In this document: one piece after another, positions 1 through 21,508 of the stretch | Layout: each line of letters starts with the position of its first letter | How positions within the stretch are numbered: the first letter of the stretch is position 1 | Virus record (IMG/VR): IMGVR_UViG_3300022750_000002 | Location: 2,314 to 66,313 of that record | Source of the DNA: a virus | DNA length: 64,000 bases | Reading direction: 5' to 3' (one strand) | Notes under the pieces: model-generated | The model's database searches: none | Told to the model about the DNA's origin: nothing | The model's input: only the letters and a program-made list of their open reading frames with translations | Translations under genes and position numbers: made by a program

Positions 1-133
1 TTTACCTCACTCCATTCCTCTGGCAGATCAATTACACGTTGTTTGTGTTTATTCGCCCCATTATACAAAAGAAAGAAGCAACAAAATGGCATAAAAATAC
101 AACAGCCCATAAATAACGAGATTATAAACTTTC

Positions 134-421
134 TCATAAAGTATCCTTTTTACTTACAGACTTAGTTAAATACTTTCTTTGTGGTTTACCTGTTTTAGTA
201 AGCTTACCAGTCTCAAAATACAGTCTTCCGTTCTTAGATTGATATACGGTATACATCTTGCCATCTAATCTGGCTGTATTGGTTGTTTTAATGCGATCTA
301 AGGCATCTAAATCGTAAAGCTTACCATTTGATTGTCTTGTTTGAGAAAATACGCCTGATGCAGTTAAACTGATTGTCGCAATAATTACTATTACTACAAT
401 GTAAAATGTTGATTTTTTCAT
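134..421 (-). CDS. Small early protein with N-terminal signal/TM segment
   Basis: ORF on operon strand; hydrophobic N-terminus FYIVVIVIIATISLTA. Confidence 0.65.
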   Translation of the reverse strand: MKKSTFYIVVIVIIATISLTASGVFSQTRQSNGKLYDLDALDRIKTTNTARLDGKMYTVYQSKNGRLYFETGKLTKTGKPQRKYLTKSVSKKDTL

Positions 422-461
422 TTTTAATGAGTTTTAAGAGGTTTATATTGTTTAGCTATGC

Positions 462-707
462 TCTACATTTAAATAACGGCTTGCAACGTTCATAGGCTGT
501 ATTATAGCTTAATTTTTACGCTGAGGCTATTTCAACTCGATACGATTGTTTCGCTACACCTCTATTTGAGTATCGCGGCAGATTTTAGTTTCCTCCTGGG
601 CTGCACCAGTTTTTTAAGTGTTTAAAGCAACAGTAAGCTATTAGTCATTATTTAAAGATGCTAGGCTAATAAAACATCTATTCAAACCGTTATTTATCAA
701 TGCAAGA
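462..707 (-). ncRNA. Candidate ~240-nt multi-stem structured RNA in ORF-free gap
   Basis: Nested stems 470-483/683-696 (14 bp, one G-U only on minus strand), 504-511/634-641, 538-543/570-575, plus internal hairpins. Confidence 0.5.
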
Positions 708-827
708 TTTGAGATACATTTATCCTGTCTTTTATAATGCAATACAGGCAATACATTTGGCGCTTAGACGTGGGAACGATCCACAACACATATTATTTAA
801 GTGTCTGCCTGCAACTAAGCTGTTTTG

Positions 828-1184
828 TTATTTACTTATATATATTAATGCCTCGGGGTTTTCTTCACAAGCTTTTAAGTAGTCTTCTAACCAAGGTATA
901 AACTGTTCGTATGTTCCCCAGCCATTAGAAGCGCTGAATTGTTTATAATGCTTTGGTTTATCTTTCATATCCTTTATACCATTTTTTAATGGCTTTATAG
1001 CCTCTTTTGCTTTAGTGTCGTAACAGTCCCACGTATAAGGACTTAATCCTGCCTCATGAGCCATTTTACTAAGGTTGTGCGTAATGTTTCTATCGTAAAC
1101 TATTTCGTCTTTTGTTTCTACGTTTTCGCCGCAATGAGGGCATTTTATTGAAATTGTGGAATACAATGCTATATCTAAGCTCAT
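828..1184 (-). CDS. Conserved phage hypothetical protein (CxxC; NITHNL...NGWGTY motifs)
   Basis: Motifs recognised as a widespread phage family, function unknown. Confidence 0.75.
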   Translation of the reverse strand: MSLDIALYSTISIKCPHCGENVETKDEIVYDRNITHNLSKMAHEAGLSPYTWDCYDTKAKEAIKPLKNGIKDMKDKPKHYKQFSASNGWGTYEQFIPWLEDYLKACEENPEALIYISK

Positions 1185-1286
1185 AATATTTAATTTAAGG
1201 GTGTTTTAAAGCCATTACAGGCATTTATAAATGTTATTGGTGTATTGTGTTGGGTGTGGTGGTAGAGTTGATTAGAAGGGCTTAAA

Positions 1287-1682
1287 TTAGTCTTCGTTTT
1301 GATCGTCTTCTAATTGACTTTCAAGTTCGTCAAAATCAAACATATCAAACTCTGATTGATTATCAACTGCATACTTAGCAATGTTATAAGGATAATCCTC
1401 TAAATCCGGTACTTCAAAGTAATTGGTACTTTCCAAATTGCCATATCCGTTAAACTGCACATAATTGTCAGAAAACCTATAGTCTCCAAAATAACAAGCT
1501 CTAACCGCATCTGAAGCACTGCTAAAATTTTCATTTAAAAAGTCCTCATCATTGTCGTATACTCTACTTTCAGATCCAATAGAGCCACAATAAGCGTTGT
1601 TTAATGAAATTAATTCTTGTTCACTCATCTCGTTGATTTGATCAACTATTAAGTCTGTTAGATTTTTTGATTGAGTAGTCAT
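1287..1682 (-). CDS. Highly acidic early protein, candidate DNA mimic/anti-restriction
   Basis: 31 D+E vs 5 K+R in 131 aa; early position; function inferred. Confidence 0.55.
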   Translation of the reverse strand: MTTQSKNLTDLIVDQINEMSEQELISLNNAYCGSIGSESRVYDNDEDFLNENFSSASDAVRACYFGDYRFSDNYVQFNGYGNLESTNYFEVPDLEDYPYNIAKYAVDNQSEFDMFDFDELESQLEDDQNED

Positions 1683-1717
1683 AATATGTTTTTTTTAATT
1701 AGCGTGTATAAGATTAG

Positions 1718-1891
1718 TTAGTTGTTAAAAGACTCTATATAGTTATTGATTTCTTTTTCTTCTACAATGTCGGACATGTAACCATAATTCATTATTAAAT
1801 TAGATTGTTCAATTTGTGCTTGTCTCAGGCTTGTAAAGTCTTTGCCATTACATAATAGTTTGCCTTCATAAAAAAGATAATATTTTGCCAT
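1718..1891 (-). CDS. Small hypothetical protein (57 aa, not in ORF track)
   Basis: ATG 1891 to TAA 1718, fills gap on operon strand. Confidence 0.55.
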   Translation of the reverse strand: MAKYYLFYEGKLLCNGKDFTSLRQAQIEQSNLIMNYGYMSDIVEEKEINNYIESFNN

Positions 1892-1959
1892 TTTAAAGCT
1901 ATTTAAAGAGTTTAATTAATTGAGTTGATACTTTGTGTTGGTTAGTTATTTACGTGTGC

Positions 1960-2535
1960 TTAGAACATTTTACCATCAACAGTAAACTCGTATTCATTTC
2001 CGATAATACAGTCCTTAGCATATTCCTCACTACTTTTATATTCTATTTCTGAATAACCGGTATTTTCAAGTTCAGCACACAAAAACATGTATTTGTCTTG
2101 AATGTAGATTTTAATGTCATTTACATAGCTTGTAAGCCTATTATATTCAGCGTAGCTATTTGTATCTATATAAAAGCTAACATCTGTAGCACAAGCGTAT
2201 GCATAATGACCTGTATTAGCTTCGCAACATCCGTAACAGTTAGCTAAAATAACTTGCAATACACTTTCTTTAATATCCGGCTTACATTCTTTAATCAACC
2301 TAGGCAAATCTAAATCAGCATCAAACGATAGTCCGTCACCTTGTGAATAAGATAAACTATATCTTACCTTAGCATTATTAAATCCTTGCTCTGCTGCCCG
2401 TTCAGCACATTCATCCTCAAAGTTCCACAACTCAATATTTTCGTAGTTAGTAGACAGATAATTGCTGATAGCCGTTTGTTGTGCTGTTACGCTTAATTCT
2501 TCGAATTTGTAAACCTTTGTTCTAATTGTTCTCAT
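1960..2535 (-). CDS. Conserved early phage protein (VYKFEELS...YSQGDG...YEFTVDG family)
   Basis: Recognisable family motifs; function uncertain. Confidence 0.7.
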   Translation of the reverse strand: MRTIRTKVYKFEELSVTAQQTAISNYLSTNYENIELWNFEDECAERAAEQGFNNAKVRYSLSYSQGDGLSFDADLDLPRLIKECKPDIKESVLQVILANCYGCCEANTGHYAYACATDVSFYIDTNSYAEYNRLTSYVNDIKIYIQDKYMFLCAELENTGYSEIEYKSSEEYAKDCIIGNEYEFTVDGKMF

Positions 2536-2544
2536 AATTTGTCC

Positions 2545-2727
2545 GTCTTTTTAATCTGAAGCGGCTAACAGGTTCATAATAAGTAATATCCAGTGTTCTT
2601 AAATTGTGGTTATTCACTGGCTTCTACCGCCTAAGCCCCGCCTTTATTTCAGGGCGAGGCAGGCTAACATGTAGCTGGTATTTCAAATCAGCATCTTTAT
2701 ACCGCAATTGCAGTAACGGTAATTATT
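2545..2727 (-). ncRNA. Candidate structured intergenic RNA / processing site
   Basis: GC-rich hairpin GCCTCGCC/GGCGGGGC, CCAGTG/CACTGG and TACCG/CGGTA stems in an ORF-free gap. Confidence 0.4.
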
Positions 2728-2901
2728 TTAAAGATTAAACCAATTTAATTTTTTATAATCTTCTTCTGTGCAATATTTCTCGGTGCATAGTACCGATTTA
2801 TTAAAACATACTAAACAGACGATAAAAGCGCCCGTTTTGACCGCATAAATAATTTGTGTTTCATCATATTTGGTAACAACACACTCGTAATAGCTTTTCA
2901 T
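2728..2901 (-). CDS. Small Cys-rich hypothetical protein (57 aa, not in ORF track)
   Basis: ATG 2901 to TAA 2728 on operon strand. Confidence 0.55.
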   Translation of the reverse strand: MKSYYECVVTKYDETQIIYAVKTGAFIVCLVCFNKSVLCTEKYCTEEDYKKLNWFNL

Positions 2902-2930
2902 CTTATTTCTTAGTTAATTGTTAACGGTAA

Positions 2931-3101
2931 TTATATTAAATCAAATTTCTTAGCTAAACTTTTAACGGCCTTAACCAAATCGTAACCTCTTATGTATTTA
3001 GGTTTTTCTTTAGTGTTGATATTTACGTTTTTATCGCCTCTTAATATATCAGATAAAGCAGCATCTAATACCGCCTTATCTTTTTTGGTTAATTCAATCA
3101 T
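2931..3101 (-). CDS. Small hypothetical protein (56 aa, not in ORF track)
   Basis: ATGA overlap with the upstream gene's stop. Confidence 0.6.
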   Translation of the reverse strand: MIELTKKDKAVLDAALSDILRGDKNVNINTKEKPKYIRGYDLVKAVKSLAKKFDLI

Positions 3102-3364
3102 TTAGAATTTAAGAATGAATTATTATCGAACATTTCTTTAAAGTGTTTATGAGTAACGCCAGGTGTTAAGTCTCTATTAAAGTCAATTCTGAAAGTTTTT
3201 TCACCTTTTTTAGTGCTAAACTTAAAATAACCGCCTTGTAAATCCCATACCGCATCTATATCAATAACAATTCCTAAAAATTCGCCTTGAGTAATTATAT
3301 CACCTCTTTTAATTTCCTCTATTTGATCTATTGTCATTTCGTAAATGTTAACGTGGGTAGTCAT
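3098..3364 (-). CDS. First gene of leftward early operon, hypothetical
   Basis: ORF directly downstream of consensus promoter. Confidence 0.65.
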   Translation of the reverse strand: MTTHVNIYEMTIDQIEEIKRGDIITQGEFLGIVIDIDAVWDLQGGYFKFSTKKGEKTFRIDFNRDLTPGVTHKHFKEMFDNNSFLNSK

Positions 3365-3408
3365 CTTTTCTACAATTTATCAAACAACCTTATTGCTGTT
3401 TGCTTGAA

Positions 3409-3439
3409 CAAATATAGATATAGTTTCCGTATTACCAAA
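3409..3439 (-). promoter_or_regulatory. Bacteroidota sigma-A promoter for leftward early operon
   Basis: TTTG-N19-TATATTTG, matching the -33/-7 consensus TTTG/TANNTTTG. Confidence 0.75.
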
Positions 3440-3886
3440 ACTATTTGCTAAATAAGTTTATGTATTACCATAACCTACTGTAAATCAAGCATAAAAAATT
3501 AATATAAATACCATTAAACACCTAACAACAACGCAATCAAACCCATACATCCCATCCAATACACCTACAATAACACAACAACCCAATTAACCTACAAACA
3601 ACATTCACAATAACAATCAGCCTTTAACACTTCACAACTCCCATATATATCTATACAACACTACTATTATTCGTATTACAACAACCTCAATCATATGCTT
3701 TATTATACCGAAAATTAGGATTGATACAGAAATTGGAGTTTTTTCGGTGGAATTTGACCCCTCAACACCTCTCTCTATACACACAAAAACACCGTTTAAA
3801 CTATCGTGAATTGTTTTCAGGTATAAATATGACTTATGTTGAATTGAATACAATATTTTTGTCTATTTTTAATAAAAACATAAATT

Positions 3887-10722: not shown

Positions 10723-10795
10723 AGCCGTTCATGTACCAAGGTGGCGATAGGGTCTCCAAAACCCAATGAGTAAGGTTCGATTCCTTAAACGGTTG
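10723..10795 (+). tRNA. trnW: tRNA-Trp (CCA), atypical D-arm
   Basis: Acceptor AGCCGTT/AACGGTT, loop CTCCAAA, T-arm TAAGG-TTCGATT-CCTTA, G73. Confidence 0.8.
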
Positions 10796-10804
10796 CAATA
10801 AAAT

Positions 10805-10876
10805 GGAGTAGTAACTCAACGGTAGAGTGCCACACTGAAAATGTGGTGGTTAGTGGTTCAAATCCACTCTATTCCA
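10805..10876 (+). tRNA. trnF: tRNA-Phe (GAA)
   Basis: GGAGTAG/CTATTCC; CCACA-CTGAAAA-TGTGG; T-loop TTCAAAT. Confidence 0.92.
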
Positions 10877-10880
10877 CAAT

Positions 10881-10956
10881 GACCAAGTACCTAATGTTGG
10901 CAAAGGGGTTAGTCTGCAAAACTAATTTAACAACGGTTCAATTCCGTTCTTGGTCT
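10881..10956 (+). tRNA. trnC: tRNA-Cys (GCA)
   Basis: GACCAAG/CTTGGTC; TTAGT-CTGCAAA-ACTAA; U73 discriminator. Confidence 0.92.
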
Positions 10957-10959
10957 CAT

Positions 10960-11030
10960 TGCCTTATAGTACAGTGGTAGTACGTATGATTTTGGTTCAT
11001 AATATCTAAGTTCGATTCTTAGTAAGGCAT
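10960..11030 (+). tRNA. trnQ: tRNA-Gln (TTG)
   Basis: TGCCTTA/TAAGGCA; TATGA-TTTTGGT-TCATA. Confidence 0.9.
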
Positions 11031-11033
11031 CAT

Positions 11034-11121
11034 GGAAAGTTAAACACAGAGGTTGCTGTGTCGCTGTTTGCTAAACAGTTGGTTCATTAGATTGGATGGG
11101 TTTCGAATACTCAACTTTCCG
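11034..11121 (+). tRNA. trnS: tRNA-Ser (GCT)
   Basis: GGAAAGT/ACTTTCC; GCTGT-TTGCTAA-ACAGT; long variable arm; G73. Confidence 0.88.
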
Positions 11122-11128
11122 CAAAAAT

Positions 11129-11211
11129 GGTAGATACCGCTTATTGGTAAGCAGACAGTCTTGAAAACTGTTGGGGCGTGAAAACGCAGGGTTCGATTCC
11201 TATATCTACCG
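11129..11211 (+). tRNA. trnS: tRNA-Ser (TGA)
   Basis: GGTAGAT/ATCTACC; ACAGT-CTTGAAA-ACTGT; long variable arm; G73. Confidence 0.88.
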
Positions 11212-11216
11212 CACAT

Positions 11217-11300
11217 CCTTTAGCGCTAACGTTGGAGTGTTAGGACTGTCTGTAAAACAGTTGTCGAAAGACTTAGTAGGTTCTAATCCTACCTATAGGA
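11217..11300 (+). tRNA. trnY: tRNA-Tyr (GTA)
   Basis: CCTTTAG/CTATAGG (one mismatch); ACTGT-CTGTAAA-ACAGT; variable arm GTC-GAAA-GAC. Confidence 0.88.
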
Positions 11301-11305
11301 CATAA

Positions 11306-11379
11306 TTGCCCTTAGCTCAGTTGGTCAGAGTGACAGACTCATAATCTGTAGGCCGAAAGTTCGATCCTTTCAGGGCAAA
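11306..11379 (+). tRNA. tRNA with CAT anticodon, probably Ile2 (lysidine, reads AUA) rather than Met
   Basis: TTGCCCT/AGGGCAA; ACAGA-CTCATAA-TCTGT; C4-G69 and C5-G68 TilS determinants; ATA codon in the leader. Confidence 0.85.
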
Positions 11380-11393
11380 CTTATTTTTTATTA

Positions 11394-14695: not shown

Positions 14696-14957
14696 ATTAT
14701 TAAATACAGATTATAGCTATGGGTTTATGCAGTTCATAGCAAATGGGGTTAAATATAGGCTGGTAGGCACTAAATGTGAGGAATATGAAAAGCCAAATAT
14801 GAGTGAAGATTGCTTTGTGGATGAAAACGGCAAGTTCCACACGTTTGTAAGAGAAATACTGATGGTTAAGCAAAAAGAAAAGAAAATAACCCCTATACCA
14901 AAAAGTGAAATAAAAATTAACACAGAAAAGAAGAAAACATTAAGGAGAGCAGTATGA
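14655..14957 (+). CDS. Hypothetical protein
   Basis: Tiling; probable start MNKLLNT. Confidence 0.6.
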   Translation: MKAWRVLWQQKMNKLLNTDYSYGFMQFIANGVKYRLVGTKCEEYEKPNMSEDCFVDENGKFHTFVREILMVKQKEKKITPIPKSEIKINTEKKKTLRRAV

Positions 14958-18992: not shown

Positions 18993-19398
18993 AAGCGGAA
19001 ATAAAGAAGTAGATGACTACATAGAGGCTTTGGAGAATAAAGTAAAAAGCTTTAGTGCATCTAATACTAAAAGATTGATAAGGTCAATTGATGGTATGGC
19101 AGGTAAACTAGCTGACGACCTGGACATGATTAATGAATCTAAGCAGAATGGAGATGGAACAGAGGTTGAACTTAGCAGTAAATTCATCAACTCATTTTTA
19201 AGTTTAGCAGAAAAAGCAGATAAGATAGAAAAGTTTTCAGAGATAGCAGACAAAATGTACGGTGTCAAAACAGAAGAAACGGAAACTATTACCTATACTG
19301 AGGAAACTACGACAACAACGACCGAACCAGAAGTAAACTTATTTGAGGTAATGCAGAAAAAAGTAAAAGACAAATTACATAAAAATGCCAGTAGCTAG
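18973..19398 (+). CDS. Putative terminase small subunit
   Basis: Helical ORF overlapping the terL start; position only. Confidence 0.45.
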   Translation: MICSNLRSGNKEVDDYIEALENKVKSFSASNTKRLIRSIDGMAGKLADDLDMINESKQNGDGTEVELSSKFINSFLSLAEKADKIEKFSEIADKMYGVKTEETETITYTEETTTTTTEPEVNLFEVMQKKVKDKLHKNASS

Positions 19399-21508
19399 AG
19401 TATATAAAAAAGGCGAACGCCTTAAATACATGGTGCAAGGCATAGAATACAAATGCCCGCCTCTTCCAGAGCCTTCAACAATTAGAGGCAGTCATTTACC
19501 AAAATCAGAACAAGTTTGGTATAGGCGCACAGAACATGAGCAATGGGATTGGAATATAACACCTTTCGATGAACACAAGAACAAATTAAAGTTATGGTAT
19601 GAAAACCCTGCAAAGGGGCAGATGGAATGGTATGAGGAGGAAATAGAAAGACTGCATGTTGGTGATTGGATAATGATTAATGGTGTTCCTACTTTCTTCA
19701 ATAAATACGCTTACTTCTTCCATAATTACTTCAAATTATTAATAGAACAGACATATCCAATTTACAAAGAAACCTCATTAGAGTATTTCAGATTCTACCA
19801 ACTATGTGAAGATGACCCTTTAACTTTAGGGGATGTAGGAATAAAGGGGAGACGTGTTGGTTTATCATCAATGGCTGCTTCAATAGATTTATTAATAGGC
19901 ATAATAGAAGATAATACGCTCCAAGGTATAGTATCTAAAACAGGAGAGGATGCACAGGAAATGTTCTTTATGATTAAGAATGGTCTTGAAAATTTACCGT
20001 TATTCTTAGTACCTGAATTAAATAAAGTAACAGACAGCGAAATACATATTGCAAAACCTGCTAAAAGAATATCATCCAACAACAGGACTATTAATGCTGA
20101 TAAAGGTAAGAACAATCGTATAAATTGGCTGGATACCTCAGAGAATGCATATGATGGTAGAAAGCTTCGTAGGGCTATTCTAGATGAAGGCGCGAAATAT
20201 ATAAAAACTAATATTTACATCCTGTTTACGAAGATAGCAGAAACATTAGTAGTTGGGGCATCAGTAAGTGGGCATATTTCGGTATTTTCTACAGTAAATA
20301 AGGGTGACAAAGGTGGAGATAACTTTAGGCAGCTTTGGGATGGTTCTGACCACATAAACGGCAAAAAGGATATGTTCGGTCGTACACAAACAAAACTTAA
20401 AAGATTCTTTATATCGGGAGATAGGGGGCTTTTAGGGTACGTTGGAAAATATGGAGAAAGCATAATAGATACACCAACAAGAAGTCAAACAGATTTTCTA
20501 TCAACTTTCAAAGACCCTTCTACAGGTAAAATAGCTTGCCCTAATCCTAAAATAGGTGCAAGGGCATATTTAGAGGAAACAAGAAAGATGAATGCACATG
20601 ACCCTGAATTATACGCGGAGGTTGTGAGAATGTATCCTTTTGAATGGAAAGAAGTATTTAAAGGCGCTAATAACACTTGTTTGTTTAATCTTGACGAATT
20701 AAATGATCAAATTGAAAAAATACAAGACGATTTAGATAAAAAAGGGCAAAAGGAAAACGGCAGAAGAATGTCGTTTAGAAAAGAAGAAAGTGGAGAGGTT
20801 AGAGTAATTGATGACCCTAGCGGAATGTGGTACATCCTTGAACTACCTAAAGAACATAATAAATGTATTGTCGTAGGAAGCATTAAATGCCCTGACAACA
20901 CAACATACGGAGTAGCCGGACTAGATACTATTGCAACAACAAAAGTAACGGTAGAAAAAGGTTCAGATGCCTGTTGCATCATTCATAAACGTTTCGACGC
21001 TTTAAATCCAGAAACATCCGGTATGCCAGTGGCGATGTTTGTCGGTAGGCCAAAAACAAAGGATTTATTCCATCAACAAATATATTGGGGGCTTCAATAC
21101 TTCGGCATTAAGATGCTTGCAGAACGCTCACCTATTGATTGGGAAGATTACGCCGTACAAAACAAACTAGCATCTCCTGTAGATTATGTAAAGAAATACG
21201 GGTTCTTAATTACGACTAACCTTTCTAACGGTAGTTCGGTTTACGGAGTTGCACCACAGAGCAAAGAAGGTATAGAACAACATGCTACGGAGATGGTAGA
21301 ATATGCCAACAATAATATCCATAAAATTAAGTTTTTAAGGCTATTAAAGGACATGGTGCACTTTGATCCTAAAGACAGAACGGTTTATGATGCATGTATG
21401 GCTTGGGGATATGCATTAATGGGATTAAAAGAAGCATTTGTTAAAACGGCTACTGTTAAGAAGGTTCAGAAAATACTTCAAATAAAGCGCAGTAAAAAAT
21501 ATTATTAA
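19385..21508 (+). CDS. terL: Terminase large subunit
   Basis: KGRRVGLS Walker A, ILDEGAKY Walker B, C-terminal GLD...D nuclease motifs. Confidence 0.92.
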   Translation: MPVARVYKKGERLKYMVQGIEYKCPPLPEPSTIRGSHLPKSEQVWYRRTEHEQWDWNITPFDEHKNKLKLWYENPAKGQMEWYEEEIERLHVGDWIMINGVPTFFNKYAYFFHNYFKLLIEQTYPIYKETSLEYFRFYQLCEDDPLTLGDVGIKGRRVGLSSMAASIDLLIGIIEDNTLQGIVSKTGEDAQEMFFMIKNGLENLPLFLVPELNKVTDSEIHIAKPAKRISSNNRTINADKGKNNRINWLDTSENAYDGRKLRRAILDEGAKYIKTNIYILFTKIAETLVVGASVSGHISVFSTVNKGDKGGDNFRQLWDGSDHINGKKDMFGRTQTKLKRFFISGDRGLLGYVGKYGESIIDTPTRSQTDFLSTFKDPSTGKIACPNPKIGARAYLEETRKMNAHDPELYAEVVRMYPFEWKEVFKGANNTCLFNLDELNDQIEKIQDDLDKKGQKENGRRMSFRKEESGEVRVIDDPSGMWYILELPKEHNKCIVVGSIKCPDNTTYGVAGLDTIATTKVTVEKGSDACCIIHKRFDALNPETSGMPVAMFVGRPKTKDLFHQQIYWGLQYFGIKMLAERSPIDWEDYAVQNKLASPVDYVKKYGFLITTNLSNGSSVYGVAPQSKEGIEQHATEMVEYANNNIHKIKFLRLLKDMVHFDPKDRTVYDACMAWGYALMGLKEAFVKTATVKKVQKILQIKRSKKYY

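Follow-up and report, generated by a model that had tools for sequence, protein, structure and literature searches.

The closest described system to the element reported here is the type-P1 twister ribozyme, which has a U-A cleavage site and which carries stem P3 in only 78% of cases, so that about a fifth of them lack it (PMC6154101). Bacterial twisters are known to be associated with other ribozyme classes, and twisters near phage genes are already known as well; the biological role of bacterial and phage twisters is not yet known (PMC6765202). We analyzed a 64,000-nucleotide (nt) stretch of phage DNA, referred to here as the window, which covers positions 2314-66313 of IMG/VR virus record IMGVR_UViG_3300022750_000002 (73,024 bp, with 127-bp direct terminal repeats). 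The element in question lies on the minus strand in a 406-nt gap (422-827) between a gene for a 118-amino-acid (aa) protein and a gene for a 95-aa protein. A short note made earlier on this DNA (the original prediction) had described a gap of about 400 nt without open reading frames (ORFs). The gap is indeed ORF-free on both strands, and it is the largest such gap in the whole 73-kb genome. We conclude, with a probability of roughly 85%, that it encodes a two-part minus-strand RNA in the 5' untranslated region (UTR) of the 95-aa gene, made up of a conserved module and a self-cleaving twister.

As judged from its alignment, segment 509-454 (minus strand) is a type-P1 twister ribozyme that lacks P3 and in which pseudoknot T1 is rewired to UGC:GCA. 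Its parts are as follows.

454-509, minus strand: twister ribozyme, type P1, without P3 (RF03160, a bacterial-only model, and covariation)
509-505 with 458-454, minus strand: stem P1 (twister alignment)
501-498 with 467-464, minus strand: stem P2 (twister alignment)
490-488 with 477-475, minus strand: stem P4 (twister alignment)
497-495, minus strand: GCC (twister alignment)
494-491, minus strand: linker UAU-G (twister alignment)
487-478, minus strand: loop L4, which reads GUUGCAAGCC
463-459, minus strand: GAGCA (twister alignment)
503-504, minus strand: predicted scissile bond U504/A503, where both the cmscan and the cmsearch alignment place the UAA of the twister consensus
485-483 with 461-459, minus strand: pseudoknot T1, rewired (U485-A459, G484-C460, and C483-G461; cmscan alignment)
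497-496 with 480-479, minus strand: pseudoknot T2, standard (G497-C479 and C496-G480)

Rfam family RF03160 matches window 508-455 (minus strand) with 35.9 bits and an E value of 7.8e-7 (full model, 121-nt search), so the original prediction was wrong in saying that no known family could be matched. The same family matches a second phage genome, G005 (IMGVR_UViG_3300045836_000088; 72,594 bp), whose terminase is 62% identical to that of this phage (G000). That match, at L130:15029-15092, scores 38.7 bits with an E value of 1.4e-7 (full model, small-region scan). Matches at homologous places in two phages support the twister identity. The core letters in the window (UAA, GCC, GUUGCAAGCC, UUAAA, and GAGCA) are those of the upper-case consensus columns, except for the T1 triplets. 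The consensus T1 pairs CCC of L4 with GGG of GAGGG, whereas the window and G005 both have UGC in L4 and GCA in GAGCA, so that T1 survives through compensatory changes on both sides. Of the 28 positions in P1, P2, and P4, 20 are not the same in the two phages, and all pairs are preserved. Therefore, continuing selection is required, because every pair was kept while most stem positions changed.

The variant is not confined to these two phages. A pattern made from the two phage copies had 33 matches in one-per-species bacterial genomes. In 12 of these, P2 (4/4) and P4 (3/3) pair perfectly, P1 is usually present, and a P3 hairpin is frequent; in the remaining 21, P2 does not exceed 3/4 and P4 does not exceed 2/3, which is what chance would give. 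The 12 copies come from Clostridia, Christensenellales, Oscillospiraceae, Prevotella, Bacteroidaceae, Treponema, and others. All 12 score below the RF03160 cut-off, and the T1 variant is therefore a subfamily that goes unnoticed at the catalogue threshold. Within 8 kb of the bacterial copies there are matches to Twister-P5, Hammerhead_II, and RAGATH-5 that exceed their own Rfam cut-offs. Several loci in gut and rumen metagenome-assembled genomes are ribozyme-dense islands (L160:4187-4252, L166:1965-2030, L167:98-171, L171:5351-5418, L181:5090-5158, and L181:6762-6813). A composite pattern of linker plus twister had no match in the one-per-species bacterial genomes.

We also built a model (R1) from 11 bacterial sequences only, with no phage sequence in it, and searched the whole 64-kb window with filters off. 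R1 matched window 512-451 with 65.8 bits (E value, 1.4e-16), and the next match had 12.8 bits. It also matched G005 (52 bits) and L039 (41.5 bits), a 75.6-kb metagenome contig that holds the closest relative of the 118-aa gene. The L039 twister (L039:186-243, plus strand) has no P3, has T1 as UCU:AGA, and lies 34 nt before the ATG of a 108-aa ORF. A structural pattern free of T1 found exactly one twister in each of this phage, G005, and L039; about 110 other loci had none.

Covariation was assessed in a 13-sequence alignment consisting of 11 GTDB copies, the window, and G005. In this alignment 91% of the cells are paired, compared with 66% in shuffles and 20-44% when the partners are slid, and the observed pairing or covariation score was reached by none of 500 shuffles. 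P2 and P4 are 100% paired and P1 is 76% paired. Thirteen pairs are changed on both sides (7/7 in P1, 3/4 in P2, and 3/3 in P4). The T1 versions are complementary every time (UGC:GCA in the window, G005, and the 11 GTDB copies; UCU:AGA in L039), and the evidence for T1 consists of this complementarity. T2 is invariant in all 13 sequences and so gives no covariation signal.

The position of the twister relative to the start codon is nearly constant. The relevant features around it are these.

422-453, minus strand: A/U-rich 32-nt leader, from the end of the twister (P1) to the ATG of the 95-aa gene
134-421, minus strand: downstream gene, 95 aa, hydrophobic N terminus, without a family match; ATG at 421-419
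828-1184, minus strand: upstream gene, 118 aa, phrog_4019, N-terminal CxxC, function not known, widespread in phages

The distance from twister to ATG is 32 nt in the window, 32 nt in G005, and 34 nt in L039, and the three downstream genes are unrelated. That three phages keep this spacing fixed at 32-34 nt before the start codon, although the genes that follow are unrelated, fits an element that shapes the 5' end of the message. The ribozyme should cleave itself at U504/A503, and we infer that it would cut the early transcript there during synthesis. The upstream piece would have a 2',3'-cyclic phosphate end with the module at its 3' end, and it would also include the 118-aa message if transcription reads through. 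The downstream piece would begin with a 5'-OH and the compact folded ribozyme, followed by the unstructured, A-rich 32-nt leader and then the ATG. The likely effect would be to uncouple the 95-aa message from its upstream context and to give it a defined and protected 5' end, and the stability of the message would probably be altered by the cut.

The G005 element was the only homologue of the whole element that we found. A DNA search among cultured phages gave no match to the gap. The 118-aa gene has homologues in 26 viral and 80 metagenome loci, but their neighborhoods differ, with no such gap downstream and no DNA match; the 95-aa gene has no relatives in viral contigs. A tblastx comparison of the gap with 130 loci matched only G005 (L130:14914-15088). 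The match is collinear and frame independent, i.e., it is at the nucleotide level and not coding. This phage and G005 have only their structural module in common, and the genes that flank the element are not homologous. In G005 the element is within a 567-nt ORF-free gap, in which an intrinsic terminator after the upstream gene is followed by a TTG-19-TATATTTG promoter ending at 14798, with about 330 nt of noncoding sequence between the promoter and a 71-aa ORF. With a promoter of its own, the G005 unit would yield the module as an independent RNA, about 230 nt long, that the ribozyme sets free. An accessory region of G005 (L125:1806-2621) has a 271-aa ORF that starts with long Gly-Ser-Tyr/Asp repeats (GYGSGSGYGSG...).

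The conserved core of the alignment between the two phages is window 623-489 (minus strand), and the flanks cannot be aligned. Much of this core is a segment upstream of the ribozyme, the 5' module, with the following features.

About 510-623, minus strand: conserved 5' module, ending in GUAAAAAUUAA just before P1
578-609, minus strand: candidate H-type pseudoknot at the start of the module (S1, S2, and L3)
609-606 with 599-596, minus strand: S1, CUGG/CCAG hairpin
604-601 with 581-578, minus strand: S2, GCAG/CUGC
595-582, minus strand: L3, A-rich, GAGGAAACUAAAAU

The module is 69% identical (85/123 columns) to L130:14912-15032 of G005, and the blocks CUUAAAAA, AACUAAAA, AAAUAGAG, and CGAAACAAUC are identical in the two phages. 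Only 8 of 28 positions are identical in the adjoining twister stems. Therefore, the similarity reflects selection on the module sequence and not recent transfer. The module probably has a function of its own as an RNA, with selection maintaining its primary sequence, and the ribozyme would release or bound it. We regard it as a candidate new phage RNA whose ribozyme-defined 3' end would separate it from the downstream message.

The original prediction had listed several inner stems, and all of them are in the sequence. However, CGATAC/GTATCG, AGATGT/GCATCT, and CTC/GAG are not conserved in G005. Its CTGG/CCAG hairpin and possible GCAG/CTGC pseudoknot fared better, as both are conserved there. 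The hairpin loop is UGCAGC, and its GCAG can pair with a CUGC 20 nt downstream, across GAGGAAACUAAAAU; loops L1 and L2 of the resulting candidate pseudoknot would be 1 nt each. S1 covaries. It is UGG:CCA in the window, GAG:CUC in G005, and GGG:CCC in the group of Bacteroides phage BS-TP3, which is 100% pairing in three lineages with two pairs changed on both sides. RNAalifold stems between 575 and 510 are proposals from two sequences only.

The BS-TP3 group was recognized through a 36-nt motif. A BLAST search with the G005 core matched the unannotated gp29-gp30 gap of this phage (E value, 3e-3), and a pattern scan for the motif found G005, 18 near-identical IMG/VR contigs of the BS-TP3 lineage, and one further match inside a gene, which was taken as chance. 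The BS-TP3 gap (L132:1353-1731; PQ571276.1 25671-26049) is 379 nt long, GC rich, and ORF free, with a fold z-score of -0.95. Its RNA downstream of the motif is different and has no recognizable ribozyme, and the L039 twister has no pseudoknot module upstream. Therefore, module and ribozyme are separable units. The module matched no Rfam family at E values up to 10 with lax filters (500-830; L130 14400-15300; L132 1340-1745). These searches included the pistol, hatchet, twister-sister, and hammerhead families and the RAGATH motifs, none of whose models matched, and no Rfam aptamer matched either, as might be sought for a riboswitch of the preQ1-I type with its H-type pseudoknot.

The most prominent feature of the original prediction was a long helix, and this brings in a fold that competes with the twister. 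Its two arms are the following.

683-704, minus strand: 5' arm of the long helix, UGCAUUGAUAAAUAACGGUUUG, complementary to twister 483-464
464-483, minus strand: 3' arm of the long helix, inside the twister by overlay on the twister alignment

The helix is present where it had been described, as a 14-bp inverted repeat (470-483/683-696, 13 of 14 positions complementary as DNA) that continues for 6 bp (464-469/699-704) past a 2-nt bulge. As RNA it is about 22 bp long. Its non-Watson-Crick positions are G-U only on the minus strand, again as predicted, and the duplex energy is -19.6 kcal/mol on that strand compared with -13.4 kcal/mol on the plus strand. However, the helix does not close a nested domain, because its 3' arm sits in the twister and competes with the ribozyme fold. 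The arm covers the 3' strand of P2, the linker from P4 to P2, the 3' strand of P4, and 478-483, which is half of L4 and contains the T2 partners and one T1 partner. Since this is the 3' half of the twister, the long helix and the active ribozyme are mutually exclusive. A second inner stem, ATAGCTTA/TAAGCTAT, is also an alternative to the twister, as its 3' strand is the 5' strand of P1 plus U504.

Several points weigh against a module and an active twister in this gap. Neither phage copy reaches the RF03160 gathering cut-off of 67.2 bits, which is a curation threshold and not a structural feature. The low scores arise because P3 is missing (window) or short (G005) and T1 is rewired; the nested Rfam model scores the six T1 letters as mismatches only and so penalizes the rewiring. 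Larger Infernal searches miss the twister (window 1-3000 at E values up to 10; RF03160 against this genome, G005, and others), because Infernal filters tighten as the searched sequence grows, and the window match is visible only with lax filters. G005 has CAGCC in L4 for the conserved AAGCC, i.e., C for the first A, and by such differences not every copy of the variant need be active. The bacterial rows of the alignment were chosen by their P2 and P4 pairing, which inflates the P2/P4 evidence and makes it partly circular, although P1 was not used in the selection and the two phage rows were not chosen in this way. Those rows were also found with a phage-derived pattern, and their conserved letters are therefore common by construction. 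In the module, the S2 partners are invariant in the three lineages, so S2 is a candidate pairing without a covariation signal, and the module as a whole is represented by G005, the only homologue of the whole element, and one partial lineage. The gap yielded no canonical Bacteroidetes promoter or terminator (neither an intrinsic terminator nor a minus-strand TAnnTTTG box); a degenerate TTG-17-AATATGTG at about 815-790 was seen by eye only. Last, under a nested-pair model the full RNA prefers the long helix over the twister stems by about 15 kcal/mol, and the helix has a pair probability of 0.96 in the equilibrium ensemble. That model leaves out T1, T2, tertiary contacts, and transcription order. 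If the long helix formed first, the ribozyme would be off.

This last point could also be read as regulation, which is the alternative that survives best, although we hold it to be on the doubtful side. It says that the 704-683 arm and the 5' half of the ribozyme compete for 483-464 and that the module or a bound factor decides between them, which would place self-cleavage, and hence expression of the 95-aa gene, under control. The mutual exclusion of the two folds, the dominance of the long helix in the equilibrium ensemble, and the presence of a conserved module between the 5' arm and the ribozyme are all in its favor. However, co-transcriptional folding favors the local ribozyme fold, the energies come from the model just described, and no ligand or partner is known. 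The best upstream-to-twister helix has 21 pairs and one bulge, and it was matched in 0 of 400 and 1 of 200 shuffles, which is far above chance against this particular twister. These counts use a helix-run statistic, as duplexfold on long arms is unsuitable because it joins everything through large loops. For the helix by itself, a 14-pair long-range run occurred in 8 of 300 shuffles of the gap. Across the 64-kb window there are 53 runs of this kind, as well as 18 helices that reach -19.6 kcal/mol or better, and many lie within long genes. Taken alone, the long helix is the kind of thing that a scan of 64 kb yields by chance.

Other twisters were examined for the same arrangement. In G005, the corresponding part of the twister also has a complement upstream, of 7+7 bp and with another sequence, which was equaled in 12 of 400 shuffles. 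However, this case is marginal (8-25 of 200) and depends on the assumed 5' end, and the 5' arm has a strong local hairpin as an alternative; the 5' arm of the window is among the flanks that could not be aligned with G005. No upstream complement to the twister was found in L039 or in 11 bacterial copies. Only the window is clearly significant among the 13 twisters, and its p-value is about 0.07 after correction for 13 tests. The long helix is unusual here (1 of 200 shuffles) and is not a general feature of twisters. A more specific form of regulation, in which this is a natural allosteric twister whose module senses a small molecule, protein, or RNA and so toggles between the helix and the active fold, and in which the module is a new phage RNA family, seems to us unlikely. 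If it were true, self-cleavage and the fate of the downstream message would be regulated during infection, and the module would be an RNA family common to Flavobacteria-type and gut Bacteroides phages. Whether natural twisters can be gated could be asked cheaply with the anti-ribozyme helix.

A module followed by a twister also accounts for the gap better than the nested-stem domain that was first proposed, which was to be closed by the 20-bp helix and to act as a new noncoding RNA or an RNase III site. We think it highly improbable that this model is right. Its helix is real, is about 22 bp with a 2-nt bulge, is consistent with G-U pairing on the minus strand only, and lies between two genes of one operon, and the suggestions that an RNA is encoded on the minus strand and that it might be a ribozyme have both been borne out, the latter by the type-P1 twister at 509-454. 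However, the minimum free energy of 455-715 (minus strand) is -54.8 kcal/mol, compared with -49.6 ± 4.3 kcal/mol for shuffles (z-score, -1.21), and 27 of 200 shuffles fold as well. The plus strand has a z-score of +0.92, and every 100-nt subwindow has a z-score between -1.4 and +1.4. The folding energy of the domain as drawn is therefore no better than that of shuffled controls. In addition, conservation in G005 does not extend to most of the inner stems, the genome is rich in comparable helices, and the 3' arm belongs to a twister for which the independent evidence is strong. The analysis gave no support for a T7-type RNase III site. The helix has a suitable length for one, but it is only marginal in G005, is not conserved at L039 or other twister loci, and overlaps the ribozyme.

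We give just as little credence to the gap being an ordinary spacer with a chance helix and a decayed or inactive twister relic. An Rfam score under the cut-off would fit a relic, as would the fact that the function of bacterial twisters is not known in general (PMC6765202). However, all stems, both pseudoknots, and the conserved core letters are intact, and a relic would not explain why each pair was kept across the 20 changed stem positions. Least credible of all is a DNA-level element (a replication origin, a cruciform, or a miniature transposon with terminal inverted repeats), to which the largest, AT-rich noncoding gap with its imperfect 20-bp inverted repeat 199 bp apart might point, because DnaA boxes are at chance level, neither iterons nor tandem repeats were found, the element is single copy in the genome and its repeat ends lack a target-site duplication, and the mismatches are G-U on one strand only with covariation that fits RNA stems. 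On these grounds a replication origin (DnaA boxes and iterons) and a miniature transposon (single copy and no target duplication) were both rejected, and the prediction of an RNA instead of a DNA cruciform holds.

All three minus-strand frames of the gap are full of stops of all three kinds, and therefore recoding would not help to make it coding. No tRNA or transfer-messenger RNA was found in it, and occurrences of CACTTAAA, a motif repeated in the phage, have no shared context. The genes in window 1-3853 are on the minus strand and lead away from a divergent point near 3870. A 267-nt gap (3365-3631) upstream contains, at 3409-3443 (minus strand), two overlapping matches to Bacteroidetes-type promoters, one of which is TTG-19-TATATTTG. 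A CTATATTTGTTC box of that region recurs outside the window (window-equivalent 68495-68502). These promoter matches and the box are likely early leftward promoters.

The large terminase (window 19385-21508) is 24-27% identical to those of Cellulophaga phages phi19:3, phi13:2, phi18:3, and phi46:3, and the same range covers Maribacter phage Panino and Flavobacterium phages. By this measure, the phage is a distant relative of Cellulophaga and Flavobacterium phages. Its GC content is 32-38%, its start codons are preceded by A-rich leaders without a Shine-Dalgarno sequence, and its genome contains perfect TTG-19-TATATTTG promoters. Because of the terminase relatives, the leaders, and the promoters, the host is most likely a member of the Flavobacteriia.

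Some further observations were made near the gap and elsewhere in the window. A 19-codon ORF (MCCGSFPRLSAKCIACIAL) with an A/T-rich leader lies at 762-799 (minus strand), right after the stop of the 118-aa gene, and has no homologues. The strongest plus-strand long-range helix of the window (766-779/1112-1125; 14 pairs; -24.2 kcal/mol) connects the gap with the interior of the 118-aa gene, and a plus-strand TACATTTG box is at 752-759. This helix and box possibly reflect antisense transcription or chance. On the plus strand, a rightward operon has a cluster of five tRNAs at 10723-11380 (Trp, Phe, Cys, Gln, and Met), and the replication region encodes an HNH endonuclease (PF01844; 11772-12545) and an N6/N4 DNA methylase (PF01555; 15371-16279).

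The ribozyme class found here is already known. What is new is a twister paired with a conserved pseudoknot module that gut Bacteroides phages share, the fixed distance between ribozyme and start codon in phages of the Flavobacteria type, and, in this one genome, a strong anti-ribozyme helix. The primary sequence of the module was conserved, although the neighboring ribozyme stems drifted until they were effectively random, and its core motif recurs in gut Bacteroides phages. The T1-rewired subfamily lies below the Rfam cut-off in phages and bacteria, so counts based on the catalogue miss it.

The closest comparison is with type-P1 twisters such as Osa-1-4 of Oryza sativa (PDB 4OJI; reviewed in PMC6154101). 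Both have the order P1, U/AA site, P2, GCC, and P4, then a 10-nt P4 loop of the form G-U-NNN-A-A-G-C-C, a UAAA-type linker, the 3' strand of P2, GA-NNN, and the 3' strand of P1, and both have two pseudoknots from L4 to internal loops. P3 is absent here, as in about a fifth of known twisters, and the GTDB copies of the variant lie beside other ribozyme classes, as known bacterial twisters do. However, T1 is UGC:GCA instead of CCC:GGG, the scores are 36-39 bits against a cut-off of 67.2 bits, the ribozyme is carried by a Flavobacteria-type phage, and it is positioned about 32 nt before a start codon.

That position has an engineered parallel. In insulators of the RiboJ type, a self-cleaving ribozyme in the 5' UTR removes upstream RNA and leaves a 5'-OH and a hairpin before the translation start. 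The element described here is likewise of a self-cleaving class and lies in a 5' UTR ahead of a start codon. However, RiboJ is synthetic and hammerhead derived, whereas this element is natural and would have such an effect by inference only. Natural allosteric ribozymes include glmS and the c-di-GMP-II riboswitch coupled to a group I intron. They resemble this locus in having a conserved structured module beside a ribozyme and an alternative pairing able to gate catalysis. They differ in that this module has no ligand and no aptamer family match and that the putative gating helix is conserved in one marginal case at most. Finally, the RNase III hairpins of the T7 early region are also intergenic, bulged helices of about 20 bp in an early operon, but here one arm of the helix is ribozyme core and the helix is not conserved. 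From this comparison, RNA processing at this locus would be more simply explained by self-cleavage than by RNase III.

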